Source of the DNA: Patescibacteria group bacterium
GTDB lineage: Bacteria > Patescibacteriota > Minisyncoccia > Moranbacterales > DUUL01
NCBI GenBank assembly: GCA_015493225.1
Contig: WGDO01000031.1
Coordinates: forward strand, 1,355 to 65,354
DNA length: 64,000 nt
Direction: 5' to 3'
How positions within the stretch are numbered: the first letter of the stretch is position 1; every line of letters starts with the position of its first letter. The position numbers and the translations under genes were made by a program. Positions 15,491 through 60,799 of the stretch are shown in pieces. The notes below the pieces were generated by a model that saw only the letters and a program-made list of their open reading frames with translations, was not told the origin of the DNA and searched no databases.

Positions 15491-16630
15491 ATGCTTATAG
15501 ATACACATTGTCATTTAAATTTTAAGGATTTTAGGGAGGATGCAGATGATGTTATTAAAAAAACTTTAAATGAAGATGTTCAGATGATTATTGTTGGGTC
15601 GCAGTATTCTACTAGTCGGCGAGCGGTAGAATACGCAGATAAGTATAATAGAGATGGGCAGGGTGGTGTTTGGGCGGCGGTAGGAATTCATCCGGTACAT
15701 TTGACAAGTCAAAAGTCTAAAGTCAAAAGTCTAAAGTCAAATAATGATAATGATTTGCCGGAAAAGTTGAGTATAGAGAAATTTGATTATAGCAAATATT
15801 TAGAATTAGCGAAAAATGAGAAGGTAGTGGCGATTGGGGAGGTGGGATTGGATTATCATCATTTTGATACCGCGAATCTACAAATAAACTACAAATCTAC
15901 AAATGTTGTTAGTGAAGGGGTTGATAAAAATAATGATGATGATATGGAGCAGAGAGTGGTTGATTTTGAGATGGCTAAAAAGGAAGTGGCGGGGATTATT
16001 GAGTTGCAGAAAAGTGTTTTTAGGGATTTCGTAAGGTTGGCAGATGAAGTGGGGAAGCCGTTGGTAATTCATGGTTGGAATGCGGATAAGAAAGATAAAG
16101 AGTTAGTTGAGGGAGCGGTGGCGTATGAGGATATATTGGAAATAGTTAGTAGTTCACAGTTTACAGTTCACGGTAAGAGTGGTGATCAGTCAGTAGCTAC
16201 TAGTTCACGGGCTGGTCACTTAAAAACCCCCCATCCCCCTTTTCGCGAAAGGGGGGATGACCCCCTTTATCCCACTTCGCTGAAGCTTCGAGGGACAGGC
16301 ACAGGGGGTAGAAGAGGGGTGGTGCATAGTTTTATTGGAAATTATAAAATAGCGCTTAGATTTATTGAAGAGGGATTTGTAATTGGCTTGAATGGAATTA
16401 TAACTTATTCGGAAAGTTACGATCGGTTAATAAAAGAAATTGGTTTGGAGAATATTATTTTAGAAACAGATGCTCCGTATTTAACACCAAACCCTCTAGA
16501 GCGATACAGCCGTAATGAGCCATTAAATGTAAAATTAGTAGCTCAAAAAATTGCGGATGTTTTAGAAATAGATGTCGAAAAGGTAGAAAAAATAACAACT
16601 AAAAATGCTCAAAGGTTATTTAAAATATAG
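15491..16630 (+). CDS. tatD: TatD-family metal-dependent hydrolase (DNase) containing two repeat-derived in-frame insertions.
   Basis: The TatD motifs 'IDTHCHLNF', 'GEVGLDY', 'VHSF' and 'ETDAPYLTP' are present. The protein is ~120 aa longer than typical TatD because of inserts at ~15880-15960 and 16222-16316. Confidence 0.85.
   Translation: MLIDTHCHLNFKDFREDADDVIKKTLNEDVQMIIVGSQYSTSRRAVEYADKYNRDGQGGVWAAVGIHPVHLTSQKSKVKSLKSNNDNDLPEKLSIEKFDYSKYLELAKNEKVVAIGEVGLDYHHFDTANLQINYKSTNVVSEGVDKNNDDDMEQRVVDFEMAKKEVAGIIELQKSVFRDFVRLADEVGKPLVIHGWNADKKDKELVEGAVAYEDILEIVSSSQFTVHGKSGDQSVATSSRAGHLKTPHPPFRERGDDPLYPTSLKLRGTGTGGRRGVVHSFIGNYKIALRFIEEGFVIGLNGIITYSESYDRLIKEIGLENIILETDAPYLTPNPLERYSRNEPLNVKLVAQKIADVLEIDVEKVEKITTKNAQRLFKI
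16222..16316. repeat. G/C-rich palindromic repeat module 'ccccatccccctttcgcgaaaggggggatgaccccctttatcccacttcgctgaagcttcgaggga', in frame inside tatD.
   Basis: Near-identical modules lie in intergenic DNA at 29541-29665, 30703-30840 and 62868-62928. Here the module translates as HLKTPHPPFRERGDDPLYPTSLKLRGTG. Confidence 0.7.
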
Positions 16631-16672
16631 CTATGCTGCAAGAATAAAATTCCTATAGTATTTATAAATAAT

Positions 16673-17302
16673 ATGAAAATAATAAAAGTTGATCTAGATA
16701 ATTTTTCTAAGGAAAATATTGAAACAATTGCTGAAGAAATTAGAAAAGAGCAAGTAGTTGTGTTACCAACGGATACGATTTATGGGTTGAGTGCGATTGT
16801 TGCTAACAAAAAAGCAATTCGGAAAATTTATCGAATTAAAAAGAGAATGCCAGAACAACAAAAACACCTGATACTTTTGGTAAAAAGTTTTTGTATGGTT
16901 CGGCGGTATTGTTATTTATCGCTGAAACAATACAATTATTTAAAAGAGCGATGGGTGGAAGGAAAAAGAGCATTGACGGTGATTTTACGAGGAAGAAAAG
17001 ATTATTTTCAAGAACAGGGTATAAATTTATCTGAATTAATTAGTGATGATGATGGGGTGGCTGTACGACGGCCGAATAATAAATTTTTATTAGCATTATT
17101 AAAAGAGGTTGATGAGTCAATTGTTTCTACTAGTTTGAATATTACTGGGAAAGAGGATTTAAGGGATATTTCTAAGATGGATAAATATTTTATCGATGTT
17201 AAACCTGACGTGGTGGTTGATGCTGGTTTTTTACCAAAACAAAAACCCTCAAAATTGGAGGATTTGAGGGATATGAAAGATATAAATGTTTTGAGGAAAT
17301 AG
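16673..17302 (+). CDS. tsaC: YrdC/Sua5-domain L-threonylcarbamoyladenylate synthase.
   Basis: The 'VVLPTDTIYGLSA' motif matches the YrdC fold. Confidence 0.65.
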   Translation: MKIIKVDLDNFSKENIETIAEEIRKEQVVVLPTDTIYGLSAIVANKKAIRKIYRIKKRMPEQQKHLILLVKSFCMVRRYCYLSLKQYNYLKERWVEGKRALTVILRGRKDYFQEQGINLSELISDDDGVAVRRPNNKFLLALLKEVDESIVSTSLNITGKEDLRDISKMDKYFIDVKPDVVVDAGFLPKQKPSKLEDLRDMKDINVLRK

Positions 17303-17397
17303 GGAATAGTATATATTAATTTGGATTTAACTTTTAGTTTAACCCTGCTATAATGTAGGGGTGGGATTTGGTTGTGAGAAAATAAATAAAAGGTTAG

Positions 17398-18894
17398 TTG
17401 TTTAATTATTTTTTTATGAAAATTGCAATAGATACGGCGGATTTGGATTGTGAGAGGATTGATGGGACAAGGGTTTATATTCAGAATGTTTTGAAGTACT
17501 TGGGGAGATTGGCTCCGGAGGATGAGTTTTTTTTGTTTCATAAAACGGAGTATAATAAGTTGTTGCGACCAGCGGAATTTAAAAATTATCATGATAAAAG
17601 TTTGGGCAAGGGTTTTTGGTGGACGCAGATTAAATTTGCGCGAGAAGTGCGAAAATTGAATTCTGATGTTTGTTGGATGCCAATTCAGCAAATACCTGGT
17701 CTCAATTTTCAATTTTCAATTTTCAATTTTCAATCAATTTTCAATGATTTAATTTTAAATTTTAAATTAATTTTTAATGTTTTAATTTTGAATAAGCGAA
17801 AAAATGATAGGCGAGCGCGGGAAATAAATAAGAGGAACAATACCGAGGCAAGGCCTCGGTATTCGGAGAAAGTGAAATATGTTGTTACGATTCATGATTT
17901 GGCGTTTAAATTTTTTGGGAATCATTTTCCGTTGGTGGATAGAATAAAGTTGAATTGGTACACGGATGTGGCGGTGAAAAGGGCGGATAAGATTATTGCC
18001 ATTTCGGAAGCGACGAAAAAAGATTTGATTAAATTCTATCCGGAAGTTGATGAAAATAAAATAGTAGTGGTGCGTCATGGGTTCGATAGGGAAAATTTTG
18101 AGCAGGAGTTTAGTGAAAGAGAAAAAAAAGTGTTTGCAAAAAAATATAATTTAATAAAAAAAGAGGTTGGTGAAAATGCTGAAATTCAAAATTCAAAATT
18201 CAAAATTCAAAATTATTTACTGTATGTTGGGGCGATTCAGCCGAGGAAGGATTTGGTGACTTTGATTAAGGCCTTCGATAAAATAAAATCTCAAGATGCA
18301 AGAAGCAAGATACAAACAAATCTCAAGATACAAGGGACAAGATACAAACAAATGACAAATGATAAATTACAAATGACAAATGATAAATTACAAATGACAA
18401 ATGACGAGACGCAGATAAATGACGGGTTGCAGGCAATATCAGATGTAGATGTTTCTAATTTGAAATTGGTGTTGGTGGGGGAGAAGGCATGGAAATCGGA
18501 AAGTACATTGAGGGCAATTGACAAATCGGAGTTTAAAGATGATATAATTGTGACAGGGAAGGTTGACTTTAGGGAATTAGCGATGTTTTATCGTTTTGCT
18601 AAGGTTTTTGTGTTTCCATCGTTGTATGAGGGATTTGGAATTCCAATTTTAGAGGCGATGGCTAGTAAAACGCCGGTAATAGTAGCGGATAATTCTTCTT
18701 TAACGGAAGTGGGCGGAGAAGCGGTATTGAAATTTAAAACGGGAAGCAGTGACGATTTGCAAAAACAATTACGAAAACTTTTGGAAGATAAAAATTTACA
18801 AGATAAAATAGTTGGACGAGGTCTGGAGCAAATTAAAAAATTTAGTTGGGAGAAGTGTGCGAGGGAGACGTTGGAGATTTTGAGGGGAATGTAG
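17398..18894 (+). CDS. GT4-family glycosyltransferase (group 1) containing satellite-derived in-frame inserts.
   Basis: N-terminus 'KIAIDTADL'. The C-terminal GT-B signature 'EGFGIPILEAMASKTPVIVADNSSLTEVGG' is present. Inserts are at 17700-17800 (AT satellite, read as LNFQFSIFNFQSIFN) and 18290-18420 (MTNDKLQMTNDKLQMTNDE). Confidence 0.8.
   Translation: MFNYFFMKIAIDTADLDCERIDGTRVYIQNVLKYLGRLAPEDEFFLFHKTEYNKLLRPAEFKNYHDKSLGKGFWWTQIKFAREVRKLNSDVCWMPIQQIPGLNFQFSIFNFQSIFNDLILNFKLIFNVLILNKRKNDRRAREINKRNNTEARPRYSEKVKYVVTIHDLAFKFFGNHFPLVDRIKLNWYTDVAVKRADKIIAISEATKKDLIKFYPEVDENKIVVVRHGFDRENFEQEFSEREKKVFAKKYNLIKKEVGENAEIQNSKFKIQNYLLYVGAIQPRKDLVTLIKAFDKIKSQDARSKIQTNLKIQGTRYKQMTNDKLQMTNDKLQMTNDETQINDGLQAISDVDVSNLKLVLVGEKAWKSESTLRAIDKSEFKDDIIVTGKVDFRELAMFYRFAKVFVFPSLYEGFGIPILEAMASKTPVIVADNSSLTEVGGEAVLKFKTGSSDDLQKQLRKLLEDKNLQDKIVGRGLEQIKKFSWEKCARETLEILRGM
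17700..17800. repeat. AT-rich 'caatttt/aaatttt' satellite embedded in frame in the GT4 gene.
   Basis: 'ctcaattttcaattttcaattttcaatcaattttcaatgatttaattttaaattttaaatt' has no stop codons in the gene frame. Confidence 0.7.
18290..18420. repeat. 'caaatgacaaatgataaattacaaatgacaaatga' microsatellite, in frame in the GT4 gene.
   Basis: Tandem 12/15-nt units. The same family is at 20300-20400, 21160-21345 and 29360-29410, and in reverse orientation at 32035-32058. Confidence 0.75.
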
Positions 18895-19069: not shown

Positions 19070-21445
19070 ATGAAAAATATTAACAAAATTTTTAAGAATA
19101 AATTTTTGGTTGGATTGGGTGTGATGGTGTTTTTGGTATTGGTGATGAGGTTGTGGTCATTTGGTAATTTGTTGACTTTTAAGATGGATCAGGCGAGGGA
19201 TATTAAATTAATTGAGGAGGCCTATGATGGAGGGGTTGGTGAATTACCTTTATTGGGTCCGCGGGCGGCGAAAACTTATTTGCGACTTGGTCCGATTTTT
19301 TATTATTTTGAATATGGGGCGATGTTGATTTTTGGAGATCAACCTTGGTCGGTGGCGGTGCCGGACTTGATTTTTTCTATCTTGGCTATTCCCTTATTTT
19401 ATTATTTTTTGCGACAAGCTTTTAGTCGCAAGGTGAGTTTTTTGACGACGATAGTTTTTGCTTCGTCGTTTTTTCTTAATCAATACGGGCGATTTGCTTG
19501 GAATCCGAATTCCATTCCGTTTTGGAGTTTGTTGTATTTTTTGGGGATATATAAGGTAGTCAATCCCACTTCGCTGAAGCTTCGAGGGATAAAAAGTCAA
19601 AAGTCCATAAAATCTGTAAAGTCTATAAAGCCAAAAGTCGAAAGTTTACCCCGTCGAATGACTTTGGGTCGAAAGTCAGATGTTAATGTTTTTAATAGTA
19701 AAGGCAGTGATTTAAAAACCCCCCAAAATTTTCGTTCCTCAAATTTTAACCCCCTTTATACAGGGGGTGGTAAATGGTGGTTGTTGGTGGCGGTGATAGG
19801 TTATGGGGTGGCTAGTCAGTTGCATTTTACGGCAATGTTGGCATATCCTCTGATTGGGGGATTATTTGTATTGGTGATTGCGTTTTGGGAAAGTTGGAAA
19901 GAGGGTAATTCAAGAGAAAATAAAAATATATCAAAAAACAAAAAAATATTGTCAATTGACTACTTGACTATACGGGGTTTGAGGAGGTTTGTTTGGAGAT
20001 TGGGACAAGGAATTTCCTGGAAATATTGGTTGGGAGCGGTGATGATTTTGGGAGTGATGTATTTACCGATGGTTTTGAGTGAAATTTACACTCATGGAGA
20101 TAATTGGGTTCAGTTTAAGTATGCTTTGAGCGGGAGAGGGAAGCCTGAATTTTCTTTGTATGCGAAAATTATTCAGTCGGTGAAATTGCATAGTGAATAT
20201 TTTTGGTTTAGTTTAACGTCTTGGGGTGGAGGAGCAGGAACTGTTGGTTTGATTGGTTTTTTTGGTGTAGTGATTGGTGCTATATTTAGTGTATGGAAAA
20301 AATTTCAAGATACAAAATACAAGGTACAAACAAATTCCAAGATACAAGATACAAGGTACAAACAAATGACAAATGACAAATTACAAATGATAAATGATGG
20401 TGAGGAAATGACAAATGATATTGGTGTAAATAAAACAGAAAAACCCCCCAAAGTTTCTCGTGATCTCGAAACTTCCCCACTTCGTCAAAATGACTTCAAG
20501 GGGCAGGCGCCAGGGGTGGATGACAGAGTAATATTTTTTGTTTTGGTTGGTGTTTGGTGGATGGTGATGTTTTTGTTGTATACGAAGTTGGCGTTTAATG
20601 TGTTGAAACCGAGATATTGGTTATTGGAGGCGCCAATTTTTTTTGTGGTGTTGGCGGTTTTTTTGGAGGGGTTGTTTAGAAATGGGCTTAAGAAGATTAA
20701 GGGGAAATATGTTACTTATTTAGTGGTGATCGTTTTAGTAGGGATGAATTTGTGGGCGACGGGGAATTGGTATTGGGAATTGAAGAACCAAAAAGATAGT
20801 TCGTTGCCACTATGGCATTTGAAATTAAAAGACCAAAATAAAATTCCTTGGGGGCAATTGCAAAAAAGTGCAAATTATATTGAAAATTTATCTAAACAGA
20901 CGGATAAGGAGGTTTGTTTTTATACGACAGGAGAATATCGTCCGGTTTATGATTATATTTTTAAGCAACGGGGATTGAGTGAAAAAATTAGACGAATATC
21001 TTTTAGTAAGGATACAAATGATAATTGTTTGTTTATAGCCATTGATCATCATCAGCATAGAGAAACTCCGAGAATTCCAAAAGATCATAAAAATGAGTTT
21101 GAGAAAGTAGAGAAGAGGGAGGTTGGGTTTGTGACAATATGGCAAGTTAAAAAAAGAATACAAGAAACAAGACACAAACAAATTCCAAGGTACAAGAAAC
21201 AAGACACAAACAAATTCCAAGGTACAAGAAACAAGATGCAAATAAATGACAAAGCACAAACAACAAATGACAAGTCGCAAATGACAAATGACAGTGGGGG
21301 AATGACAAATGACAAATTACAAATGACAAATAACAGGGAACAGGGAGCAGTGAATAAGGAGCAGGGAGTAGAGAATAATAAAAAGAAAAAAGTTAAAAAG
21401 CCGAGGAGGGTTGAGAGGGTAAGGTGGAAGGACTTATTTAATTAG
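19070..21445 (+). CDS. GT39/PMT_2 (ArnT-like) family membrane glycosyltransferase carrying multiple repeat-derived insertions.
   Basis: About 12 TM helices. The N-terminal region 'KMDQARDIKLIEEAYDGG...LGPIFYYF' is typical of dolichyl-phosphate-mannose/undecaprenyl-phosphate-dependent glycosyltransferases. Inserts are at 19561-19690, 19715-19785, 20300-20530 and 21160-21345. Confidence 0.5.
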   Translation: MKNINKIFKNKFLVGLGVMVFLVLVMRLWSFGNLLTFKMDQARDIKLIEEAYDGGVGELPLLGPRAAKTYLRLGPIFYYFEYGAMLIFGDQPWSVAVPDLIFSILAIPLFYYFLRQAFSRKVSFLTTIVFASSFFLNQYGRFAWNPNSIPFWSLLYFLGIYKVVNPTSLKLRGIKSQKSIKSVKSIKPKVESLPRRMTLGRKSDVNVFNSKGSDLKTPQNFRSSNFNPLYTGGGKWWLLVAVIGYGVASQLHFTAMLAYPLIGGLFVLVIAFWESWKEGNSRENKNISKNKKILSIDYLTIRGLRRFVWRLGQGISWKYWLGAVMILGVMYLPMVLSEIYTHGDNWVQFKYALSGRGKPEFSLYAKIIQSVKLHSEYFWFSLTSWGGGAGTVGLIGFFGVVIGAIFSVWKKFQDTKYKVQTNSKIQDTRYKQMTNDKLQMINDGEEMTNDIGVNKTEKPPKVSRDLETSPLRQNDFKGQAPGVDDRVIFFVLVGVWWMVMFLLYTKLAFNVLKPRYWLLEAPIFFVVLAVFLEGLFRNGLKKIKGKYVTYLVVIVLVGMNLWATGNWYWELKNQKDSSLPLWHLKLKDQNKIPWGQLQKSANYIENLSKQTDKEVCFYTTGEYRPVYDYIFKQRGLSEKIRRISFSKDTNDNCLFIAIDHHQHRETPRIPKDHKNEFEKVEKREVGFVTIWQVKKRIQETRHKQIPRYKKQDTNKFQGTRNKMQINDKAQTTNDKSQMTNDSGGMTNDKLQMTNNREQGAVNKEQGVENNKKKKVKKPRRVERVRWKDLFN

Positions 21446-21713
21446 AGATTGAGAATTAAAATATGTTTTGTTTGAATTTTCAATTTGAAATTTGAAATTT
21501 GAAATGAATTTGAATTTTTTTAATTTAGAAACTAATTTTTTGTTTGCAGTTTACAATTTATGATATGCTGATTATTATTTATTGTTTTAAGAACTTAAAC
21601 ATTAAAAATTTTTATCTTTCATTTAGGGATGACACTTAGAACTTAAGGTTCTTTTAAATCACTTGCTTTCCCATTTCTTAAAAGGGATTAAACAGGGGTT
21701 TTAAAGTAAAAAA

Positions 21714-21776
21714 TCGAAAAACCCCCAAAGTTTCTCGTGACCTCGAAACTTTAATCCCCTTTATACAGGAGGTATT
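21714..21776. repeat. Composite module 'gaaaaacccccaaagtttctcgtgacctcgaaactttaatcccctttatacaggaggt' (intergenic copy).
   Basis: Related copies are at 13691-13712, 19715-19785 and 20441-20500 (in frame in the GT39-like gene), 22853-22908, 25746-25802 and 47983-48036, and in reverse orientation at 55125-55185. Confidence 0.75.
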
Positions 21777-21852
21777 AAAAGTGCTTGAAAAATGGGGGGA
21801 GTTGGCGTACAATGAATATTGTAGAATTTGTTTTGGATTTTTCTGATACCCC

Positions 21853-21953
21853 GTCAAACCTTCCAGATGTTATTTTCTCCCTGATGTTTGACTTTTTACT
21901 GATTGAAAAATGTGTCAAACATGCGTTTGAAAATAACATCTAGAAAGCTTGAC
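21853..21953. repeat. ~100-nt asymmetric hairpin element, copy 3.
   Basis: Arms 'gtcaaaccttccagatgttattttctccctgatgtttgac' and 'gtcaaacatgcgtttgaaaataacatctagaaagcttgac'. It sits ~60 nt upstream of the 22013 gene. Confidence 0.8.
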
Positions 21954-22012
21954 TGATATTTATGGAGATAATCCTGAATTAATTAATGATTATTTTTTAA
22001 ATGTAATAAGTT

Positions 22013-22597: not shown

Positions 22598-22852
22598 GTT
22601 AGCTTGCAATTTACAGTTTATGGTTTGTAGATGAGCGCATGGTTTATAATTAGCAGTGATTAAATTTAAAATTTAAAATTTTAAGTTCTAAATGAATAAT
22701 TAATTATGAATTTTGAATTTTTATTTAAACTTTTTATTTCTCATTAAAAATAACGACTTTTTCTTTTAGAATAGAATCTGTTATTATATATTTAATATTA
22801 AAGACTAATCATCTAAAACTCATTTAAAGTTTAAGACTTGAAAGCTGAACTG

Positions 22853-22908
22853 AAAAACCCCCAAAAATTATCGTTCCTCGAATTTTGACCCCCTTTACAC
22901 AGGGGATG
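22853..22908. repeat. Composite module 'aaaaacccccaaaaattatcgttcctcgaattttgaccccctttacacagggg'.
   Basis: Same family as 21714-21776; read directly. Confidence 0.75.
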
Positions 22909-22940
22909 TCCGAAGGGAGCTATTAGATAAATTAAATTAA

Positions 22941-24700: not shown

Positions 24701-25487
24701 TTATCGGAAAAAATTTAAAATTACAAAAGAAGTGGCGGAAGCTTGGGAACAAGAGTCTATTTTTTTGGCTGGGCAAAATGATGTTTTGATTATTTTAGTG
24801 CATGGTTGGTCTTTAACACCACGGCAAATGTTAGGCTTGGCGAAACATTTAAACAAAAAAGGTTATTCAGTAAGCTTGCCTCGGTTATTAGGACATGGAA
24901 CTAAACCGGAGGATTTGGAACAAACGAAATGGCGAGATTGGGTTGGGGCTTTGGTGAAAGAAATTAGAAAACAAAAGCAAAAAAATAAATTTAGGAAAAT
25001 TATAATTGGGGGGACATCAATGGGTGGTAATGTTTGTTTATTGGCTAGTTTAGTAGCGCGGGTTGATGGACTTGTTTTGATTGGTGTTCCGGTGCATTTT
25101 AAAAATCATTTTTTTATTAAACTTGGTTCTATTGCAGTTCCATTTTTTAGAAAATATGTTAAGAAAATTCATCCCCAAAAGATAAAGTTTAATCCAAAAG
25201 ATAGTTATCAATATTTTCCGATGAAAAATTCTAGACAAGTTTTATATTTGGTACGAAATTCTGTTTTTTCCCTTAAAAAAGTGACAGCGCCACTTTTAGT
25301 TTTACAAACCAGAAAAGATTTTTTTGTGACGAAGTATTCACCATGGATTATTTATAAAAATGTATCTTCTAGAATCAAGAAAATGCAATGGTTGGAGACT
25401 GAGTCGGAAAATCATGTGCCCCAGGGAGAAGAAGTTGGGAGAATGGCGAAGTTTGTGGAGGAGTTTGTGGAAGATGTTTGTTTTTGA
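24693..25487 (+). CDS. Alpha/beta-hydrolase, paralog 2 (tandem duplicate).
   Basis: 'LIILVHGWSLTP', 'GTSMGGNV' and the shared 'GHGTKPEDL' motif with paralog 1. Confidence 0.7.
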   Translation: MVNYRKKFKITKEVAEAWEQESIFLAGQNDVLIILVHGWSLTPRQMLGLAKHLNKKGYSVSLPRLLGHGTKPEDLEQTKWRDWVGALVKEIRKQKQKNKFRKIIIGGTSMGGNVCLLASLVARVDGLVLIGVPVHFKNHFFIKLGSIAVPFFRKYVKKIHPQKIKFNPKDSYQYFPMKNSRQVLYLVRNSVFSLKKVTAPLLVLQTRKDFFVTKYSPWIIYKNVSSRIKKMQWLETESENHVPQGEEVGRMAKFVEEFVEDVCF

Positions 25488-25539
25488 TACTACGAATCTA
25501 CAAATCTATTACGAATTTACAAATGTACGAATTGTGATT

Positions 25540-25745
25540 TTTAAATCCTAATTTCTAAAGCCTAAACCCTAAACAATACTAAATTTCAAAATTCAAATGT
25601 TTCAAACAAGAGATATTACAGTTTTGAATTTTAGAATTAAATAATTTGAATTTGTTTAGAATTTAGAAATTAGGATTTAGTATTTTAATCAAAATTCAAA
25701 ATTTAAAATTCATTTAGAACTTAAAATTTAAAACTTAAAATTCTT
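25540..25745. repeat. AT-rich 'aattttaaatttta / ttgaattttagaatt' satellite (representative of at least 14 intergenic occurrences).
   Basis: Similar tracts lie at 21470-21520, 22660-22700, 34020-34040, 35650-35820, 37200-37260, 39730-39900, 42490-42600, 44910-44970, 48690-48880, 52300-52490, 53480-53640, 54420-54520 and 59170-59215. Confidence 0.7.
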
Positions 25746-25802
25746 AAAAACCCCCCAAAATTTTCGTTCCTCAAATTTTGACCCTCTTTACACAGGGGGT
25801 AG
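25746..25802. repeat. Composite module 'aaaaccccccaaaattttcgttcctcaaattttgaccctctttacacagggggt'.
   Basis: Same family. It lies at the 3' side of recG (minus strand), after a long AT satellite at 25540-25745. Confidence 0.75.
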
Positions 25803-25820
25803 TCAAGGAAAATTCACTGT

Positions 25821-29273: not shown

Positions 29274-29540
29274 AAATTATTTTTTACAACTTTTTCCCAC
29301 CTCACTTTCACTAAGCGGAGTTTATCCTCCGGAGCAACTGCGAAGGAGGAAGAGCAAGTAATTAATTTCCAAGATACAAATTACAAGATACAAACAAATC
29401 CCAAACCCCAATAATCAATGTTTGAAACTGTGGTTGTTCTGCGAAGCCGTTTAGGCGAAGTGGGGAAACTGCAAACTAGCAATAAACTAAGCCTAGCAAA
29501 AATTATGGGGCTAGTCAATAATTTAAAATTTCTTAAAACT

Positions 29541-29665
29541 CTCCTCATCCCCCTTTTCGCGAAAGGGTGGGATGACCCTCTTTACCCCACTTCGCTATCC
29601 CACTTCGCCTTCGGCTACGAGGGATAAAAAGCTTTGCTGGGCAGGCGCCGGGGGTGTGAGAAGTA
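29541..29665. repeat. G/C-rich palindromic module cluster (intergenic copy).
   Basis: 'catcccccttttcgcgaaagggtgggatgaccctctttaccccacttcgctatcccacttcgccttcggctacgagggataaaaag'. The 69-aa ORF 29418-29627 consists of repeat sequence and is probably spurious. Confidence 0.7.
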
Positions 29666-30702: not shown

Positions 30703-30840
30703 TCCACCTCTAAACCCTCCTTTATCCCACTACGCTATCCCACTTCGCTGAAGCTACGAGGGACAAGAGGCTACGAGGAACAGGTATCAGGAGGGGGAAT
30801 TAAGGAAATCCACTTCTACCCCCTTCTTTTACAAAGTAGA
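30703..30840. repeat. G/C-rich module cluster (intergenic copy).
   Basis: 'ccctcctttatcccactacgctatcccacttcgctgaagctacgagggacaagaggctacgaggaacagg...' shares blocks with 16222-16316 and 29541-29665. Confidence 0.65.
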
Positions 30841-34136: not shown

Positions 34137-35019
34137 ATGGGATTTAATTTGCCTGAAATAAAAAAGAATAATTCTGAAATCGCAGAGAAAGATGTGGAGT
34201 TAAAAGAGCTCTATAAGCAGACGACAGTATATATTAATGCTGGAGGCAGGGGAACTAGATTAGAGCCAGTTGTTCAAAAAGGTGACCATGGTGTTACAAA
34301 AGCCCTTTTGCGATTTGATGGGGAAACTTTGATTGAAAAACATATAAAACTGTTATCCAATTTTGATTTTGGGAGAATAATTGTGGGGGGGGGGCGATCA
34401 TTTAAATCTTACACAATATTTACAGCAACAAGATTTAGAGAATGTTATTATTGATAATACAGAAAAACAGGAGGATACGGGAGGTGATTTGATTAAGGCA
34501 ATTCGTAAACATAATTGTGGGAAAAATATTTTAGTGGAAAATGTTGATACAATTTTATTAGTAGACAATTTTGATAGATTATTAAAACAACATAACAAAA
34601 CTAATGCTTTAGGAACTATCGTATTAACCACTAAAAAAGGTGTGCCAAATGAAGGGGCTTTTTATGTTAATGAGAATGGCAAGGTGATTTTTAGTAGCGA
34701 GGCACGAAATCAATCATCTGCAGAAGAGCCAAGTAATTGGACTGGATTTCGTGGTAGTAGTACGGGGGCAATTATTTTTTCTACTGATTTTTTAAAACAG
34801 TATAATTGGAAAGCTGGTGATGGTAAATTATCAATTTATAAAGATTTAGTTCCAGAATTAATAGAGATGGGTGGGTTGTATGCGTATGATAATGAAAATA
34901 ATTTCTTTATGGATGTTGGGACACCTGATAAATATAAACAAATTAAAAGGCACCCAAAAATTTTTGGGGCAGTTGGTGCCAGATATTTAAAAAATAAAAA
35001 TAATTATTATGGCAAATAA
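34137..35019 (+). pseudogene. Nucleotidyltransferase (sugar-phosphate NTP-transferase fold) gene split by a +1 frameshift at a G10 homopolymer. It may be phase-variable, or the extra G may be a sequencing error.
   Basis: The upstream ORF (34137-34454) carries the 'INAGGRGTRLEPV' NTP-transferase G-loop. The G run at 34385-34394 has 10 G. Removing one G fuses it in frame to ORF 34381-35019, giving ...IIVGGGDHLNLTQY... Confidence 0.6.
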
Positions 35020-35605: not shown

Positions 35606-35896
35606 TAAATAGGCGGATTGCAAAGTTTGTAGGGTTTATAAAGTTTATAAAGAAAGCTGGAAATAAATTTTAATTTGTAATTTGTAAATTTTAATTCAAA
35701 ATAAAATTTTTAATATTTAATTTTAAAATTATCAAATATTTTAGTTGGATGTTTGTTTTAATTATTTAAAATTAGATATTTAGCTTTGAATTAAAATTTA
35801 AAACTTAAAATTTAAAATTTTTAGAAATCCCCCCTTACCCCCCCTTTAAAAAGGGGGAAGAACCGTAAACAACGCCGAAATATCCAATGGTCCAGT

Positions 35897-43435: not shown

Positions 43436-43785
43436 TCCTTTGGTTCCCCTCCTTTGGTAAAGGAGGGGTTAGGGGAGGATTTGGTTTTTCAAATTTGAAA
43501 TTTTCAATCTCATCCCTAAACGGGAGATAAAAATTTGCAATGTTTAAATTTAAAATGATTGAAATAATGGTGAACTTAGAGCATTAGATGACTTATAGTT
43601 TGTTTGTAAAAATTAAAATTTAAAACTAAAAATTCTAAAAATCCCCCCTTAGTCCCCCCTTTACAAAGAGGGGAAACTAGGAAACAATTCTTTCTTTACA
43701 AAAAGAAGAGAAAATTAGAAAATAACTATCCCTTCACCGTAAACATTAAATTATGCACTATAAACTAAATAATTAAAACAAAAAT

Positions 43786-46469: not shown

Positions 46470-46470
46470 A

Positions 46471-47977: not shown

Positions 47978-48045
47978 ATTGTAAAACCCCTCAAAATTTT
48001 TGTTCCTTAAATTTTAATCTCCTTTATATAGGAGATAAATGAGAT

Positions 48046-48942: not shown

Positions 48943-49350
48943 ATGTCTGTAAAAGAACGGCAGGAAAGATTAAATATTGGCAATAAAGGCGAAAAGGTGG
49001 CGGCGAATTATTTATTGGCTCAGGGTTATGAGTTATTGGAGGCAAATTATTTTAATGACAAAGGGTATCAATGGGGCGAGATTGATTTGATTGTGAAAAA
49101 TAAACAAGATGATATAGTTTTTGTGGAAGTGAAAACTAGAAAAAATTTTAAGACGGAAAATAATGATGATATTGTGCCAGAAGAAAATATTAACAATGCT
49201 AAAATTATTAAAATTCAAAAATTAGCTTGGATATTTTTAAAAGAAAATGGCTGGGAAGAAAAAAATTGGCGGATTGATGCGGTGGGGGTGATTTTTAATT
49301 ATGTTAGTAGAAAAATTGAGATTAGGCATATTAAATATATTAGAGTATGA
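48943..49350 (+). CDS. YraN/UPF0102-family endonuclease-fold protein with an internal insert.
   Basis: 'GNKGEKVAANYLLAQGYELLEANYF...GEIDLIVKNKQDDIVFVEVKTR' matches UPF0102. Extra acidic insert ~'FKTENNDDIVPEENINN'. Confidence 0.65.
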   Translation: MSVKERQERLNIGNKGEKVAANYLLAQGYELLEANYFNDKGYQWGEIDLIVKNKQDDIVFVEVKTRKNFKTENNDDIVPEENINNAKIIKIQKLAWIFLKENGWEEKNWRIDAVGVIFNYVSRKIEIRHIKYIRV

Positions 49351-52509: not shown

Positions 52510-53493
52510 ATGGTTAATATTTTTTTTCAAGCATTAATTTTAAGTGGGGTGTTGTTTTTGGTTGGGACAAAGATATGGAAGAATAAATTTAAAAGATGGG
52601 GAGGGATTGTTTTGGTGTTGGTATTTGTGTGTTTGGTTTTGACTCATCGAGAGTTAGAATTAACTAAACAATTACAGGGAATTTTAGTTGGTAGTTTATT
52701 TATATTGGGATTCGGTTGGTGGGATGATTTGCGAAATCTATCTTGGAGACAACAGTTACTGGGACAAATATTTCTGGTGATAATTTTACTTTTCTTTGGT
52801 TTTCGGGTGGAGTATTTACATGGAATTTATAATTTTGGTTTTCACTTGGATAAAATATTTTTGGGAGGAGTGTCTGTTTTAAGTGCTATTTTTATATTTT
52901 TTTGGATAATGGGAAGTATTAATGCGATGAATTGGTTAGATGGAGTAGATTCTTCTTTGGGAATAGTAGCTTTATTTGGTGGATTAAGCATTGGGTTTGT
53001 TAGTTTATTACCGGAAGTTAATCAGCCAGCTATTGCAATCTTGGTTAGTATCTTTTTAGGGTCGATGGTTGGATTTTTATTATTTAATTTACCACCGGCA
53101 AAAGTAGAAGCGGGAACAGTGGGAAGTTATTTTGTTGGTTTTGTGTTGGCTAGTTTGGCAATTATGGCTGGGAGTAAAATTATCACAATGATGATAATCT
53201 TTATTTTACCAATGATGGACTTTGCCTTGGTAATCGTTAATAGATGGCGACGGGGAGTTTCTATTCTTCAAAAGGACCATAGTCATTTACACTATCGTTT
53301 GCGAGCGTTAGGTTGGAGTGATTTAAGAATTTTTTTAACCTATGGAATATTTTTAGGAACGGTATTGGTTTTGTATATTTGGCTACCAACCAGGGAAGCG
53401 AGATTTTATTTGTTGTTGGGGGAGATGATTGTGGTGGGAGGAGGGATAGGGTTTATAAAGTCTGTAAAGTCGAAAGTCGAAAGTCTAAAATAA
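52510..53493 (+). CDS. Glycosyltransferase family 4 (MraY/WecA-type) polyprenyl-phosphate sugar-phosphate transferase.
   Basis: 'GSINAMNWLDGVDS' matches the N(L/A)xDGxDGL motif. It has about 10 TM helices. The C-terminus ends in a repeat-derived 'KSVKSKVESLK'. Confidence 0.65.
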   Translation: MVNIFFQALILSGVLFLVGTKIWKNKFKRWGGIVLVLVFVCLVLTHRELELTKQLQGILVGSLFILGFGWWDDLRNLSWRQQLLGQIFLVIILLFFGFRVEYLHGIYNFGFHLDKIFLGGVSVLSAIFIFFWIMGSINAMNWLDGVDSSLGIVALFGGLSIGFVSLLPEVNQPAIAILVSIFLGSMVGFLLFNLPPAKVEAGTVGSYFVGFVLASLAIMAGSKIITMMIIFILPMMDFALVIVNRWRRGVSILQKDHSHLHYRLRALGWSDLRIFLTYGIFLGTVLVLYIWLPTREARFYLLLGEMIVVGGGIGFIKSVKSKVESLK

Positions 53494-53641
53494 ATTTTAA
53501 ATTTTAAGTTTTAAATTTTAAATGAATAGCTAATTTTGAATTTTAAATTTTTAATAAAGTTTATTGGTGTGCATTTAATATTAAAAATTAGTTATTCAAA
53601 ACTCATTTAAAACTTAAAACTTAAAATTTAAAACTAGTTTT

Positions 53642-54100
53642 ATGTTTAATAAAACCTTTAAATTCAAAGATATAGTTGGAATAACGCTGGTGATTTTAGC
53701 ATTGGTTGTTTTTTTGACTCAGAATGCTTTTTGGAAAGGGAGGAGCGGGACAGAGCAGACTATCTTGAAGATTGGGGGAAATGAATTACGAGTTGAAATT
53801 GCTGATGACGAGAAGGAGAGATATCAAGGGCTGAGTGGGAAGCAACAATTGAGCGATGAAGAAGGAATGTTATTTATACATCCAAAAGCAGATATGCACA
53901 AATATGTGATGAGGGGTATGAAGTTTGATTTAGATTTTATTTTTATTAAAGATGGTAAGGTGGTAGATATTGCTAAAAATGTTTCAATGGGGTATAAAGG
54001 AATAGTGCAGGGAGCGACGGAGTATGATGAAATTTTGGAAGTTCCGGCAGGATGGTGTAACCGAAGGGGGGTAAAGTTGGGGGATAAAGTTGTTAAATGA
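53642..54100 (+). CDS. DUF192 (COG1430) family protein.
   Basis: 'MLFIHPKADMHKYVMRGMKFDLDFIFIKDGKVVDI' matches the conserved DUF192 core. Signal/TM N-terminus. Confidence 0.6.
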   Translation: MFNKTFKFKDIVGITLVILALVVFLTQNAFWKGRSGTEQTILKIGGNELRVEIADDEKERYQGLSGKQQLSDEEGMLFIHPKADMHKYVMRGMKFDLDFIFIKDGKVVDIAKNVSMGYKGIVQGATEYDEILEVPAGWCNRRGVKLGDKVVK

Positions 54101-54640: not shown

Positions 54641-54751
54641 CTAGAAAAGGTTGGGGGTGGATTTCAATTCTTAAAATCCCCCCTCAATCCCCCCCCCTTA
54701 CAAAGGGGGGAAGCTAGAAAAGTAGCAAATAATTAAAATAAGTATAAACAA

Positions 54752-55090: not shown

Positions 55091-55303
55091 ATGTAATGAG
55101 GGGCTGTTTAATTTACCCCCTGTCTAAAGGGGGTCAAAATTCGAGGAACGAGAATTTTTTGGGGTTTTTCTGTTTGTTACTTAAAAACCCCCGAAGCCTG
55201 AACAAATTCTTTTTATTCCGCTTCGCTGACGCTACGCGGACTAAAAAGAATTTATCCAGCCTTCCGCCCCCTTTAAAAAGGGGGCAACTTGGAATCAATG
55301 GTT

Positions 55304-56449
55304 TTACATATGGTCTAAAAAGTTATCAACTAACGCAAGGATTTTTTCAAGGTTATTTTCCCAAATAATTCTTTGGTCTCGTTTAAACCAAGTGCGTTGG
55401 CGTTTAGCGTAGTTTTTCTCAGCGAAGTAGACTCGTTTAATTAGCTCTTCTTTAGCTTGAATTGGGTCGGTGATAATATTTTTCTGGTCATCAAGCAGTT
55501 TGTTTTGGAGATAAAGAGGTATCCAATAGTAGGCTAGACCAAAAGCTTGAATTTCTTCCCAACTTATTTTGTATTTTTCTTTTAGATTTTTTATTTCTTT
55601 AATCATTCCATCAGTCCAACGACTTTCCAGTCGTTTTTTTATTTTTTCCGCTAATTTATCTTTGGGCCAATCTAAACCAACCTGAAGGAAGTCGATATTT
55701 TTAGGAGCATTCTTTTTTATTTTTGGTATGGTTCCTAGTTCTTCACATATTTCTAAAGCACGAATTAGGCGGAACTTATTTTTGGGATCAATGTTTTTGG
55801 CACGGTCCGGGTCTTTCTTTTGTAGTATTTTAAATAATTCATCAGTATTTTTCTTTTCTAGTTTCACTCTCAGTTTTTTATTTGGTTTTACTTCCGGGAA
55901 AATAGTGTTATCAACTACGGCGGAGATCCAAAAACCGGTACCGCCACAAAGAATAGGGATTTTATTTTCTTGATTAATTTTCTTAATTAGTTGTAGGCAA
56001 TTTTTTTGGAAATTAGTTACAGAATATTTTTTATCTTCTTGGGAGTGGGTGGTCGGACTTACAAAATCAACAAGATGATGGGGGATGTTTTTGTAAATAA
56101 AGATTTTTTTTGATTTTTCAGACGCTTTGCCTGCCTTATTGGCAGGTGAACCTGCTTCATCTAGTTTACCGGCAGGTGAACTTCCGAAATCAGTTATTAA
56201 TTTTTCAGAAGCAAGGCTTCTGAAATTTCTGGGATTTTTAATTTCTTTCCATTCTCCCTCGACTTTTCCTGTGCCTAAATCCATGTCTTTATAAATCTGC
56301 CTAGAGTCAACAGAAATAATTTCACTTTTTTTACTAACATCTTTTTCCAATTTTTTCGCAAGTCTAACAGCCAGGTCTGATTTACCTGACGAAGTCGGTC
56401 CGAGAATAACAATGACTTTGGTTTTTTTCATATACGATTGATAAGTCAA
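55304..56449 (-). CDS. miaA: tRNA dimethylallyltransferase with a ~45-aa repeat-derived insertion.
   Basis: P-loop 'ILGPTSSGKSDLAVRLAKKL' and 'ISVDSRQIYKDMDLGTGKV'. The insert 'FRSLASEKLITDFGSSPAGKLDEAGSPANKAGKASEKSKK' is encoded by 'ccggcaggtgaac' repeats and the palindrome 'ttcagaagcaaggcttctgaaa' (~56100-56235). Confidence 0.85.
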   Translation of the reverse strand: MTYQSYMKKTKVIVILGPTSSGKSDLAVRLAKKLEKDVSKKSEIISVDSRQIYKDMDLGTGKVEGEWKEIKNPRNFRSLASEKLITDFGSSPAGKLDEAGSPANKAGKASEKSKKIFIYKNIPHHLVDFVSPTTHSQEDKKYSVTNFQKNCLQLIKKINQENKIPILCGGTGFWISAVVDNTIFPEVKPNKKLRVKLEKKNTDELFKILQKKDPDRAKNIDPKNKFRLIRALEICEELGTIPKIKKNAPKNIDFLQVGLDWPKDKLAEKIKKRLESRWTDGMIKEIKNLKEKYKISWEEIQAFGLAYYWIPLYLQNKLLDDQKNIITDPIQAKEELIKRVYFAEKNYAKRQRTWFKRDQRIIWENNLEKILALVDNFLDHM

Positions 56450-57616: not shown

Positions 57617-57689
57617 CTTATTAAAACTTATTTAGATGTCGGACGTCTAAGTGGATTTAAGTTTAATTAATAAATAATTTAGAAATATT

Positions 57690-59105: not shown

Positions 59106-59270
59106 TTTCTAAGGCTGATTTATATTCTGCTTATTTGGGGTATAAGGTTTTTTATGAGAGCGAGGGAAAGTAAATTTTAAGTTTTAAATTTTAAATTTTA
59201 AATTTTTAATTGATGTATTTTTTGGGTATTTAATAGTACTGTAGAGATTAAGTGCTTGAATAAATTACAG

Positions 59271-59316
59271 GCATAAAAAGAAACCCGCCGAAGCAAGGTT
59301 TCTGCTTGGGCGGGTT
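59271..59316 (-). terminator. Rho-independent terminator for the minus-strand gene 59369-59896.
   Basis: Hairpin 'aacccgcc...ggcgggtt' followed by a T-run on the minus strand. Confidence 0.55.
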
Positions 59317-59368
59317 AACAACAGGAGAACATCAACCAATCTCAGCTAGGATGGCGAGTTGGTTGGGG

Positions 59369-59896
59369 TTATTCTGGAAGAATGTGAATAAGATGTTGCA
59401 AAAGCAGTCCTACATAAGTACACTTTCCAGCCAGAAGAGAAGTTGGATCAGTGTTTTTGAAAATATCAAAATTAGATATCTCCTTATCGGCTACATTGTG
59501 AAATGCGCAGGAAACAGTATGCGCATTTATTTTAATATTTTTCAATTTCTGGTTAATCTCAGGAAGAGTATTATCACTTGAGCCATTATAAAGGGATTTT
59601 AATTTGGATAAAGTAATGATAATCGGAGCAAGTTGATAAATTGAATTTAGATCTTGAGCTTGAGAAACAACGCTCAAGACAGACAACGAGCAGTTGGTGT
59701 GAACGTGACATGATATAATATCATCAGGATCACTCAATCCTACCAGCTCTTTTCCATTGATATCCCAGGTATTGCCAGTTATTCTAAGGTGGAGTTTTGA
59801 ATTGTTGGTTAATGTTATTTCGCAGAGTGAGCCGTTTTTAAACATGTAATATTGACGAACTTGACCCATCAAGATGTTATCTTTTTTAAATGGCAT
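59369..59896 (-). CDS. Hypothetical protein.
   Basis: 175-aa ORF with no recognisable motif. Confidence 0.35.
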   Translation of the reverse strand: MPFKKDNILMGQVRQYYMFKNGSLCEITLTNNSKLHLRITGNTWDINGKELVGLSDPDDIISCHVHTNCSLSVLSVVSQAQDLNSIYQLAPIIITLSKLKSLYNGSSDNTLPEINQKLKNIKINAHTVSCAFHNVADKEISNFDIFKNTDPTSLLAGKCTYVGLLLQHLIHILPE

Positions 59897-60001
59897 GGAA
59901 TATTCCTCACTTGTTGAGATTTATAAGGTTGTAAAAAAAGAGCTAAATATTAGTACATAAATATTTATAGCATACAAAATATTAAAAAGCAAGAAATTTT
60001 T

Positions 60002-60799
60002 ATGAGCAAATTAGATTTTAAAAATAAACTATTAAATATTTACAAACCCAAAGGGGTATCGTCTTTTGATGTGGTGAGGGATGTTAAGCGGATGACTGGG
60101 GAGAAAAAAGTTGGGCATGCTGGGACTTTGGATCCTTTGGCGGAGGGAGTACTAATTGTTGGTGTTGGTCGGGAGGCGACTAAGCGGTTGCGGTTTGTGT
60201 TGGAGGAGGACAAAGAATATGTTGGGGAGATTAAATTGGGAATGGTTAGTACGACGGATGATGAGGAAGGGAGGAAGTCGAAAGTCCATAAAGTTCATAA
60301 AGTCCATAAAGTTCATAAAGTCGAAAGTTTACCCCGTCGAATGACTTTGGGTCGGAAGTCTACAGAGTCGAAAGTAGCGAGCAAAACAATCTGGCCGAGT
60401 AAAATAGAAATAGAAAAAGTAATACAAGAAAATTTTATTGGGGATATCGTGCAAATAACGCCGACATATAGTGCGGTGAAGATTGGGGGAGAGCGAGCTT
60501 ATAAAAAAGCGCGACGAGGAGAAAAATTTACTCGTCCGCCACGAATTGTTACTATTAAAGAAGTTAAGATTCTAGATTATCAATTAAAATCTTTTAAGAA
60601 AATTAAACAATCTGATGATTCTAATATATCAGCAGGAAAATATCCTGTTTTGAAAATTAAAACAGTGGTTGGCTCTGGTACCTATATTCGTTCCTTGGCT
60701 CGGGAAATTGGTGAAAAGCTTGGTACTGGTGGTTATTTAACATCGCTGGTGCGAACACGAATTGGAAATTATAAAATGGAAGATAGTGTGAGATTATAA
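60002..60799 (+). CDS. truB: tRNA pseudouridine(55) synthase containing an in-frame microsatellite insertion.
   Basis: 'GHAGTLDPLAEGVLIVGVG', with the catalytic Asp in TLDP. The insert 'KSKVHKVHKVHKVHKVESLPRRMTLGRKSTESKVAS' lies at 60285-60380. Confidence 0.9.
   Translation: MSKLDFKNKLLNIYKPKGVSSFDVVRDVKRMTGEKKVGHAGTLDPLAEGVLIVGVGREATKRLRFVLEEDKEYVGEIKLGMVSTTDDEEGRKSKVHKVHKVHKVHKVESLPRRMTLGRKSTESKVASKTIWPSKIEIEKVIQENFIGDIVQITPTYSAVKIGGERAYKKARRGEKFTRPPRIVTIKEVKILDYQLKSFKKIKQSDDSNISAGKYPVLKIKTVVGSGTYIRSLAREIGEKLGTGGYLTSLVRTRIGNYKMEDSVRL
60285..60380. repeat. 'aagt(c/t)cataaagt' 9-nt microsatellite x4 plus the 'gtttaccccgtcgaatgactttgggtcg(g/a)aagtc' module, in frame in truB.
   Basis: An identical 'aagtttaccccgtcgaatgactttgggtcgaaagtc' module lies at 19640-19680 inside the GT39-like gene (encoding ESLPRRMTLGRKS in both). 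A related intergenic copy is at 61685-61795. Confidence 0.8.

Follow-up and report, generated by a model that had tools for sequence, protein, structure and literature searches.

Rickettsia palindromic elements (RPE-1 to RPE-8; summarised in PMC10969869 and PMC1166351 after Ogata et al. 2000/2002) are the closest described counterpart of the repeats reported here from a 64,000-nucleotide stretch of contig WGDO01000031.1 (the window), part of a Moranbacteria genome in which short repeat modules lie in frame inside the genes for TatD, MetRS, ArgRS, TruB and other proteins. Rickettsia felis carries 728 RPEs in 1.49 Mb, 85 of them in open reading frames (ORFs), and their in-frame insertion has been reviewed as an unusually frequent case of in-frame fusion by a MITE, or miniature inverted-repeat transposable element (PMC10969869; PMC1166351). 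We consider it likely that the Moranbacteria genome has been colonised by several short repeat families, which spread at the DNA level into spacers and genes and are tolerated in frame. As with the RPEs, a reduced genome carries short selfish repeats both between its genes and, in frame, in housekeeping genes that are unrelated to each other; the sites suit the fold of the protein, presence varies between related species, and no transposase is known for the repeats. However, RPEs are palindromes of ~100-150 bp with one conserved peptide per family, whereas the modules here are 26-100 nt long, form mosaics and nests, include non-palindromic heptamer and 9-mer arrays, and are translated in different frames or orientations; in addition, the host belongs to the Candidate Phyla Radiation (CPR). 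The RPE-like character proposed in a first-pass annotation of this DNA thus stands as an analogy and does not imply RPE membership; sequence homology to the RPEs is unlikely in view of the different phylum, module lengths and sequences. Within 64 kb, 7 of the 52 protein genes contain ~16-18 internal sites and an eighth bears a C-terminal tail, a density several-fold above that of the in-ORF RPEs in R. felis, in a window picked for its repeats. In the literature on CPR, Patescibacteria and Moranbacteria, we found no report of intragenic repeats of this kind.

Other described systems share some of these features. The QMITE1 and QMITE2 elements of Coxiella burnetii occupy 0.93% of the genome, possess terminal inverted repeats and direct repeats, and are apparently ancient and immobile (PMC5896051). 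They are MITE-like, overlap annotated genes and extend or replace C-termini, to which the tail of a WecA-like protein in the window is comparable, but they touch functional genes at the 3' ends only, whereas the inserts here are mostly internal and differ between close relatives. Heterocystous cyanobacteria contain short tandemly repeated repetitive (STRR) sequences, which are tandem, intergenic heptanucleotide repeats with unit sequences of their own, such as CCCCAGT. The scattered tandem heptamer arrays of the window are similar, but the unit sequences, the host phylum and the coding location differ, and the heptamers here are joined to hairpin modules inside essential genes. Intragenic MITEs of Anabaena PCC 7120 have also been described (cited in PMC10969869). 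Here, as there, some small elements lie within ORFs. In yeast mitochondria, the mobile GC clusters or bypass elements are GC-rich palindromes in genes, where they disrupt the reading frame and the ribosome passes over them. The window likewise shows GC-rich, probably mobile palindromes at high density in protein-coding genes, but frame and freedom from stop codons are kept, which would imply ordinary translation. Finally, repetitive extragenic palindromes (REPs) are extragenic by definition and carry a conserved 5' GTAG/CGTC tetranucleotide (PMC3733652). Together with the mosaic elements that REPs form (BIMEs), mobilised by RAYT (Y1) transposases, and with palindrome-associated elements derived from IS200/IS605, they partly resemble the repeats here, in having short GC-rich hairpins in mosaics, apparently neither terminal inverted repeats in the hairpin families nor target-site duplications, and compensatory stem changes, but many copies here are intragenic.

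The window has a GC content of ~34% and the majority of its genes lie on the + strand; the named homologs of its TatD belong to Candidatus Moranbacteria or Parcubacteria of the CPR. A Pfam search of the window ORFs identified the genes considered here:

10466-12049, MetRS gene (metG)
15491-16630, TatD gene (tatD)
16673-17302, Sua5/YrdC-family gene
17398-18894, GT4 glycosyltransferase gene
19070-21445, PMT_2/GT39-like gene (GT39)
32156-34009, ArgRS gene (argS)
48943-49350, YraN/UPF0102 gene (yraN)
52510-53493, WecA/MraY-like gene (PF00953)
55304-56449, - strand, MiaA gene (miaA)
60002-60799, TruB gene (truB)
62941-63630, - strand, S6 gene

They were compared with contig loci of relatives (L002, L003, L005, L007-L011 and JGI loci) and with the proteins P0361 and P0362; repeat family C was also followed in the loci L012, L015 and L028. 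L002 is the closest relative of the window, and L005 is a relative free of inserts. A scan of genome contigs with the TruB peptide recovered no relative; the synteny-based ortholog sets were taken from contigs encoding the proteins.

Self-BLASTN of the window assigned 33% of the intergenic bases but 4.5% of the coding bases to interspersed repeats; repeats cover ~10% of the window. The coding matches are located in metG, tatD, GT4, GT39, argS, truB and, at its 3' end, the WecA-like gene, and they pair with intergenic copies at E values of 1e-5 to 1e-29. They include complex modules of 26-86 nt, not repetitive in themselves, which are found again in unrelated genes and spacers at identities of 87-100% (E 4e-6 to 2e-22). 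Families A-D are hairpin modules rich in GC. Family A is a GC-rich hairpin module, CCCCCTTTACAAAGGGGG, preceded by a C-rich leader. Family B consists of AAAAACCCCCC, the palindrome CCCCCTTTCGCGAAAGGGGG and the hairpin GACCCCCTTTACACAGGGGGT, and family C has the ends of family B around an AT stem-loop middle. Module D is a 30-nt hairpin, TCCCACTTCGCTGAAGCTNCGAGGGA. The tandem arrays comprise heptamers of the TTTTAAA, CAAATGA, AAGTCAA, GTTCACA and TACAAAT types and the 9-mer AAAGTCNAT. Several unrelated families had been proposed at first; there are indeed several, but B and C have both ends in common and differ in the middle hairpin alone, and D is placed in the loop of their 3' hairpin. The intergenic copies that serve as references are as follows:

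25744-25806, + strand, family C reference, a two-hairpin element
21717-21779, 22851-22913, 47980-48042 and 55113-55171 (- strand), other family C copies
62865-62925, + strand, family B reference, palindrome and 3' hairpin
29532-29650, second family B copy, with module D in its loop
62152-62187, + strand, family A reference
35823-35861, 43641-43671, 54679-54709 and 55254-55284, other family A copies
61686-61769, + strand, array of the 9-mer AAAGTCNAT and start of the ESLP module
53486-53642, AT-rich heptamer-satellite palindrome with 70-nt arms and a 17-nt spacer

About 20 AT-rich satellite arrays lie after or between genes across the window. Inverted arms make long palindromes of the AT-satellite elements and of a 120-nt family, while the hairpins of families A-D are internal and not terminal repeats. 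Folding was significant for families A and B and for an insert in miaA (z -2.4 to -4.3; argS copy of family A, -2.35; family B at 62865-62925, -3.2; miaA insert, -4.3) and only modest for family C. The 9-mer/ESLPRRM module and the heptamer arrays showed no folding, which limits the palindromic nature of the repeats. In family C, two hairpins are retained through compensatory changes that affect both stems, with 95% of cells paired; double-sided changes occur at 4 pairs in 13 cells, and 0-3 of 500 shuffles were equally good. No module matched Rfam at gathering or permissive thresholds. A pure terminator role for the repeats was dropped because they are found equally in tandem, convergent and divergent spacers. 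The 120-nt family is a near-perfect palindrome with arms of ~45 nt (CCCGTCAAGCTTTTTGGATGTTATTTTCTACCTGATGTTTGAC...), whose four copies in the window are all intergenic (8057-8192, 8818-8953, 21836-21971 and 63869-63987), three of them just 5' of + strand genes.

Family C is also found well beyond the window. BLASTN over all loci gave 22 distinct copies on ten or more contigs, at least 8 of them in frame in long ORFs. Its pattern was detected in 13 JGI metagenome contigs and in one metagenome-assembled genome (MAG) labelled Bdellovibrionales; the GTDB representative genomes gave four matches only, two of them in the MAG with that label. The claimed relation between coding and intergenic copies is therefore borne out by DNA identity inside the window and, for family C, by these 22 copies. 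The contigs labelled Bdellovibrionales are probably mis-binned CPR contigs from relatives of the Moranbacteria clade. In this 'uncultured Bdellovibrionales' MAG (L015 182-1945, - strand, and L012; CAZRER010000082.1 and CAZRER010000023.1), a MurC-like gene of 587 aa carries family C in frame; it also bears a second module, AVPLPERSEGEVRPLKNLRNK, which recurs in the TruB of P0362. L005 contains none of the eight repeat families within 20.9 kb.

The inserts are most finely resolved in tatD, for which a codon alignment of the window and six relatives was made. TatD ranges from 267 to 379 aa in 33 orthologs, the window protein being 379 aa long. Its extra zones (aa 72-90, 125-165 and 225-272) are not found in typical Moranbacteria TatD and are patchy in close relatives. 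At the DNA level they correspond to:

15706-15741, + strand, zone 1, AAGTCAA/AAGTCTA heptamer array read as SQKSKVKSLKS (Tandem Repeats Finder, 14 nt x 2.6 copies, 100%)
15863-15985, + strand, zone 2, TACAAAT-type module (NLQINYKSTN...) and tail; 15862-15906 matches intergenic 25482-25526
16163-16306, + strand, zone 3, nested mosaic of a GTTCACA heptamer array, a family B element (16219-16269) and module D (16270-16299)

In zone 1, AAGTCAA heptamers occur in the window and L002 only, and CAGTGAA heptamers take their place in L003 and L007-L009. L002, L003 and L007 have zone 2, which is absent from L005, L008 and L009, although L007 and L008 are otherwise almost identical. In zone 3, the 30-nt module D occupies the 3' hairpin loop of the family B element, and 16219-16297 matches intergenic 62865-62915 (96%/51 nt, E 2e-15), 29532-29596 (89%/65 nt) and 30736-30765. 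The AlphaFold2 model built on the ortholog alignment is a confident TIM barrel, with 203 residues at a predicted local distance difference test score (pLDDT) of >=90; pLDDT exceeds 90 in the core and falls below 50 at residues 75-92, 139-144 and 226-271, which are the insert zones. Over its first ~270 nt, tatD does not differ from the L002 gene (6961-8100); scattered differences follow up to ~600 nt, and the 3' third is far more diverged, a pattern that looks like a recombination mosaic between lineages.

The two aminoacyl-tRNA synthetase genes carry the following inserts, of which the first two in metG had not been listed by the first-pass annotation:

11559-11632, + strand, metG, AT-rich heptamer-satellite module read as NFKFKFVNFNSILNDEILNDN; 12 intergenic partners, best 85%/55 nt, E 2e-10
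11642-11731, + strand, metG, 90-nt (30-codon) insertion specific to the window; not in L002, L003 or L008
11856-11903, + strand, metG, 48-nt insertion of AAAGTCGA-type repeats; not in L002, L003 or L008
32500-32588, + strand, argS, two tandem 51-nt family A hairpin units (CCCCCTTTACAAAGGGGG) read as KTEKPPQSPF(T/K)KGED

The metG satellite module is open in the host frame only and is present with a different sequence in L002 and L008. The argS insert matches intergenic 62152-62187 and 35823-35861, is missing from all 14 of the aligned relatives, and sits in the linker just before the HIGH motif. Two further repeats adjoin or occupy metG. A GC-rich 37-nt tandem repeat of 2.5 copies (AGATCGCTTCGCTCGTTGTATCGGCTAGCGCCTCGTG, 12051-12143), partly common to L002, adjoins the metG stop codon, and the L008 metG (844-2319) has an extra 30-nt GC-rich double hairpin (CCGCCCAAGGCGGACCAGCCTGGGGCTGGC) nested inside its AT-satellite module. 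A similar CCTGCC...GGCAGG hairpin is found in the miaA insert of the window and in an L002 spacer.

The envelope genes carry longer composite inserts:

17702-17804, + strand, GT4, AT-satellite arm read as LNFQFSIFNFQSIFNDLILNFKLIFNVLILN; 19 intergenic partners
18180-18405, + strand, GT4 second zone, AAATTCA array (18180-18219), 32-nt repeats and CAAATGA 21-nt array (18281-18405)
19563-19774, + strand, GT39, composite 59-aa insertion of module D (19564-19589), AAAGTC 9-mer array with the ESLPRRMTLGRKS module (19590-19677) and family C (19712-19774)
20297-20474, + strand, GT39 third site, 32-nt and CAAATGA repeats with a segment matching intergenic 21710-21751
21158-21334, + strand, GT39 fourth site close to the C-terminal end, 32-nt repeats (x 2.8) with a CAAATGA array
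53455-53493, + strand, WecA/MraY-like gene, C-terminal tail and stop codon from AAAGTC repeats (KSVKSKVESLK)

Compared with PDB entry 6tvp, GT4 has ~36 and ~66 extra residues at its first and second repeat zones, respectively, and the second zone matches GT39 20299-20418 (83%/120 nt, E 2e-29). The family C part of the GT39 composite matches intergenic 25744-25806 (92%/63 nt, E 1e-18). The L005 ortholog of GT39 wholly lacks the 59-aa block, is non-homologous in the region of the third site, and lacks the 42-aa C-terminal stretch of the fourth. The WecA/MraY-like ortholog of L010 is without the tail.

In the two tRNA modification genes, the inserts are:

60275-60415, + strand, truB (aa 92-138), AAAGT(C/T)CAT 9-mer array with the ESLPRRMTLGRKS module
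56100-56236, - strand, miaA, lineage-specific hot-spot insertion (fold z as above)

Positions 60275-60360 of truB match GT39 19594-19677 (87%/86 nt, E 2e-22) and intergenic 61706-61769. Residues 92-138 are extra compared with the TruBs in the PDB and with typical CPR TruBs of 225-227 aa. The TruB of P0362 bears the same KVESLPRRMT(L/W)GRKS module, and L010 and P0361 have unrelated content at that site. The protein itself has 265 aa and ends soon after the catalytic domain, with the PUA domain missing, as in CPR relatives of 225-301 aa. In MiaA, a hypervariable hot spot follows GTGKVEGEW, and its content differs in almost every relative. Compared with L010, miaA has 87 extra nt (~56113-56199) that are specific to the window and flanked by a 13-nt direct repeat, GC(T/G)TCTGAAAAAT. 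The proposed insertion in miaA is thus real and lineage-specific, but the link to the intergenic repeats does not extend to a BLAST match within the window, where the insert has no partner; it is tied to the repeats by its hairpin content and by a family C copy, in reverse orientation, at the same site in L011. The AlphaFold2 model of MiaA is confident (core >90), with pLDDT <50 at residues 69-106 of the protein P0241, the insert zone. The inserts are, according to the models, probably disordered loops around an intact catalytic core. An IS3-type gene adjoins miaA in L011 and shows no link with the modules.

The coordinates and peptides first given for the inserts agree with the translations, and the alignments of TatD, MetG, ArgS, MiaA, TruB and GT39 with their orthologs show segments that are lineage-specific and patchy in close relatives, as had been predicted. 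Three of the conditions under which the first-pass reading would have failed (segments common to the orthologs, assembly artefacts, and no relation of coding to intergenic copies) were examined, and none of them was upheld. The residues that we take to be catalytic fall in invariant columns of the TatD, ArgS and MiaA alignments, in keeping with the statement that catalytic motifs were retained. At least ten genes had been counted as affected; eight of the ten named hold, and yraN and S6 are not supported. YraN (135 aa, an ordinary length for this protein) has no repeat match and, against the 80-position UPF0102 profile of Pfam, ~20 additional residues. The K/E-rich C-terminal tail of S6 is low-complexity sequence without an interspersed-repeat partner. 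K, E and T abound in this extension of ~135 aa, in which the stretch at 63032-63075 has a period of 12 nt.

Signs of movement come from module D (core plus C[AG][AG]G). In L002, L003 and L007-L009, it is inserted at GTT^CAC(A/G)G in the GTTCACR heptamer array of tatD, where the window has an intact, exactly empty site. In the window, module D is found 110 nt downstream instead, at TTA^CACAG within the 3' hairpin loop of the B element, a position at which L002 has an exactly empty site. The filled and empty sites are clean, with no target duplication and a short target, T^CAC(A/G)G, at two sites only; they suggest real mobility, whether by precise excision followed by re-insertion or because the CAC(A/G)G motif is targeted repeatedly. 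A second kind of change concerns the tatD element between the identical ends TTAAAAACCCCCCA ... GACCCCCTTTA, which enclose a 25-nt B palindrome in the window and a 22-nt C stem-loop in L002. Such an exchange of the middle is best explained by a cassette swap through gene conversion from another copy; intergenic 62865-62915 is, as noted, 96% identical to the family B copy of the window tatD. Similarly, the metG satellite of the window is nearer to the intergenic TTTTAAA consensus than to the TTTTCAA version of the L002 ortholog, which suggests re-templating from other copies. Slippage clearly plays a part as well, in the 51-nt tandem of argS and in perfect 14- and 21-nt arrays, and it probably adds to array growth.

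Such arrays could also be taken to mean that the segments arose in situ, by local slippage and mutational bias in an AT-rich genome, and that they resemble intergenic DNA by convergence, with no mobility. Many segments are indeed tandem arrays with a period of 7, 9, 14, 21 or 32 nt, the tatD zone 1 position holds AAGTCAA or CAGTGAA according to lineage, the argS insert is a 51-nt unit duplicated in tandem, and the S6 tail is plain low-complexity sequence. However, the B/C, D and ESLPRRM modules are complex and recur in unrelated genes and spacers at 87-100% identity, family C is nearly unchanged in ten or more contigs of other samples, and module D has discrete boundaries, 30 nt apart, at two different sites. 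We regard an origin wholly in situ as unlikely and insufficient, because slippage, though probable in array growth, cannot make shared complex modules.

Several observations nevertheless weigh against colonisation by mobile repeats. The window ORFs scanned with Pfam include no transposase or RAYT-like gene, nor TnpA, and no target-site duplications were found except for the 13-nt direct repeat at the miaA piece. The filled/empty pair of a NUDIX gene (L028 vs L015) shows a net gain of 42 nt and resembles replacement, not clean insertion. The unit sequence of the heptamers differs by lineage at one site, which in-situ generation fits equally well. The source is a short-read MAG, and the window was picked for its visible repeat richness, so that its density is possibly unrepresentative of the genome. 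Translation of the inserts, too, is read solely from frame and stop statistics.

With regard to the mode of mobility, the sites of module D, inserted beside a short motif with clean empty sites (two sites), may again recall the REP and IS200/IS605 systems. Some hairpins have the size of REPs (imperfect palindromes of 20-40 nt), but unlike REPs they have no GTAG/CGTC tags beside them, their flanks reading CAGT/TTAGT/CAT, and the lack of a RAYT/TnpA gene among the window ORFs scanned is a further difference; unlike classical MITEs, module D leaves no target-site duplication, and the NUDIX pair looks like a replacement. Tentatively, the modules may move by a hairpin- or single-stranded-DNA-dependent, target-specific process without target duplication, of the kind derived from REP/RAYT or IS200/IS605, together with gene conversion and array slippage. 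It is possible, though we would not press the point, that the clade hosts active, hairpin-targeting ultra-short mobile modules, down to 30 nt, which insert at specific motifs without target duplication, leave clean empty sites, exchange cassettes by gene conversion and land in frame in loops of essential enzymes. They would then keep supplying the whole lineage of these ultra-small symbiotic bacteria with new protein sequence, disordered at first, and would be mobilised by a Y1/RAYT-like or a so far unrecognised enzyme.

The unit that spreads was examined through the peptides that the modules encode. Module D is read as PTSLKLRGT in the window tatD and GT39, as SHFAEATRD in L003 and L009, and as SRFAEATRD in L007/L008. 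The sense reading of family C, LKTPQNFRSSNFDPLYTGG, occurs in the window GT39, the L002 TatD, two MurC genes, a NUDIX protein and two other ORFs, and the antisense reading, YPLCKGGQNSRNENFGGF, in the MiaA of L011. In the TatD alignment, differing codons were synonymous and nonsynonymous in ratios of 67:52, 88:82 and 91:74 in the core but of 6:36, 2:23 and 2:25 in the inserts. Selected peptide motifs shuffled between proteins, for example interaction or localisation tags with decayed intergenic remnants, would accord with the family C sense copies, which always read LKTPQN(F/S)RSSNFDPLYTGG in at least 6 different proteins, and with the ESLPRRMTLGRKS peptide common to TruB and GT39. However, the single sense frame of family C arises because it is the sole stop-free frame on that strand; just two frames of the family are ever fully stop-free, the antisense one in some copies only. 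Selection at the protein level is made quite improbable by the unrelated peptides that D yields in two frames and C in both orientations, by insert codon differences that are almost all nonsynonymous, by the predicted lack of structure and by the compensatory stem changes, which represent a constraint on nucleic acid. For the same reasons (two frames of module D, two orientations of family C, mostly nonsynonymous insert changes and compensatory stem changes), the inserts are, as read from their sequences, nucleic-acid-level elements passively carried by the proteins, the unit being DNA and not peptide.

The indels between the coding sequences of the window and L002 (90, 48, 30 and 30 nt) are all multiples of three. 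The 19 intergenic AT-satellite copies contain stops in 113 of 114 frames, ~3 per frame, and in the coding copies the host frame stays open, which agrees with the frame maintenance that had been proposed for the AT-rich insert. The stop-free frame was reached through TAA-to-CAA changes in GT4 17702-17804, where the host frame is the sole open one, and through a shifted period in metG. Frame and stop statistics argue for inserts that are translated and purged of stops, since splicing or bypass would leave neither property under selection. That the inserts are not translated, owing to intron-like excision, ribosomal bypassing, protein splicing or decay of the hosts into pseudogenes, has a precedent in the bypassed GC-rich palindromes of yeast mitochondria and draws on the indirect case for translation here, but it is highly improbable: every insert is a multiple of three and stop-free while its intergenic homologs are stop-rich, no intron, intein or Rfam signature was found, and the host ORFs have stayed intact, keeping their conserved motif residues, over a divergence at the species level.

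Mis-assembly or chimeric joins that threaded intergenic repeat reads through genes might be suspected in a MAG contig with abundant repeats and a gene split by a G10 homopolymer (34385-34394, possibly a sequencing error), but the probability is negligible, as the modules are below the typical read length, every insert keeps the frame, unlike random chimeras, and independent assemblies of other samples (L002, L003, L007-L011 and the JGI loci) contain the same inserts, or sister ones, at matching codons (GCA_027051955.1, GCA_054010275.1, GCA_054028135.1, ENA ERZ2349xxxx, JGI and Logan contigs).

Colonisation by repeats tolerated in frame, the reading that we consider likely, would proceed as follows. 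Non-autonomous modules (the A, B/C and D hairpins, the AAAGTC 9-mer and the heptamer satellites) would combine into mosaics and spread as DNA through spacers and genes. Genic copies would persist only where they add a whole number of codons, leave no stop in the host frame, and lie in a surface loop, an inter-domain linker or a C-terminal tail. The survivors would be translated as unconstrained, probably disordered peptide loops with the catalytic core intact. They would later undergo stop-codon purging, nested insertion, cassette exchange, tandem duplication and deletion, and the outcome would be lineage-specific hot spots of variable length.

In-frame repeat colonisation of essential genes, so far mainly a Rickettsia curiosity, is now seen in the CPR, which suggests that the phenomenon recurs in reduced genomes of unrelated phyla. 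The inserts may partly account for the oddly long and variable orthologs of CPR bacteria, which is of relevance to protein annotation, orthology calling, phylogenomic alignments and structure prediction in this group. For enzymes such as TatD, MiaA, TruB and the aminoacyl-tRNA synthetases, they represent many natural tests of insertion tolerance, and protein sequence might arise de novo by this route. The hot-spot loops differ even between near-identical strains, and several module families interact. The 30-nt module D, with its clean filled and empty sites, provides a concrete handle on the mobilising enzyme.

Two other features of the window were noted. The nucleotidyl-transferase gene (34137-35019) consists of two overlapping ORFs (PF12804 in the N-terminal part and PF00483 in the C-terminal part). 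An out-of-frame repeat insertion as the cause of the split was ruled out, as the break lies at the G10 homopolymer and no repeat module is found there; a sequencing error, a pseudogene and a phase-variable tract are all possible explanations of the break. The GC skew is very strong (+0.2 to +0.47) and falls toward zero at the - strand genes (26-30 kb and 62-64 kb). Because the drop coincides exactly with these genes, the skew follows the coding strand at least as much as replication.

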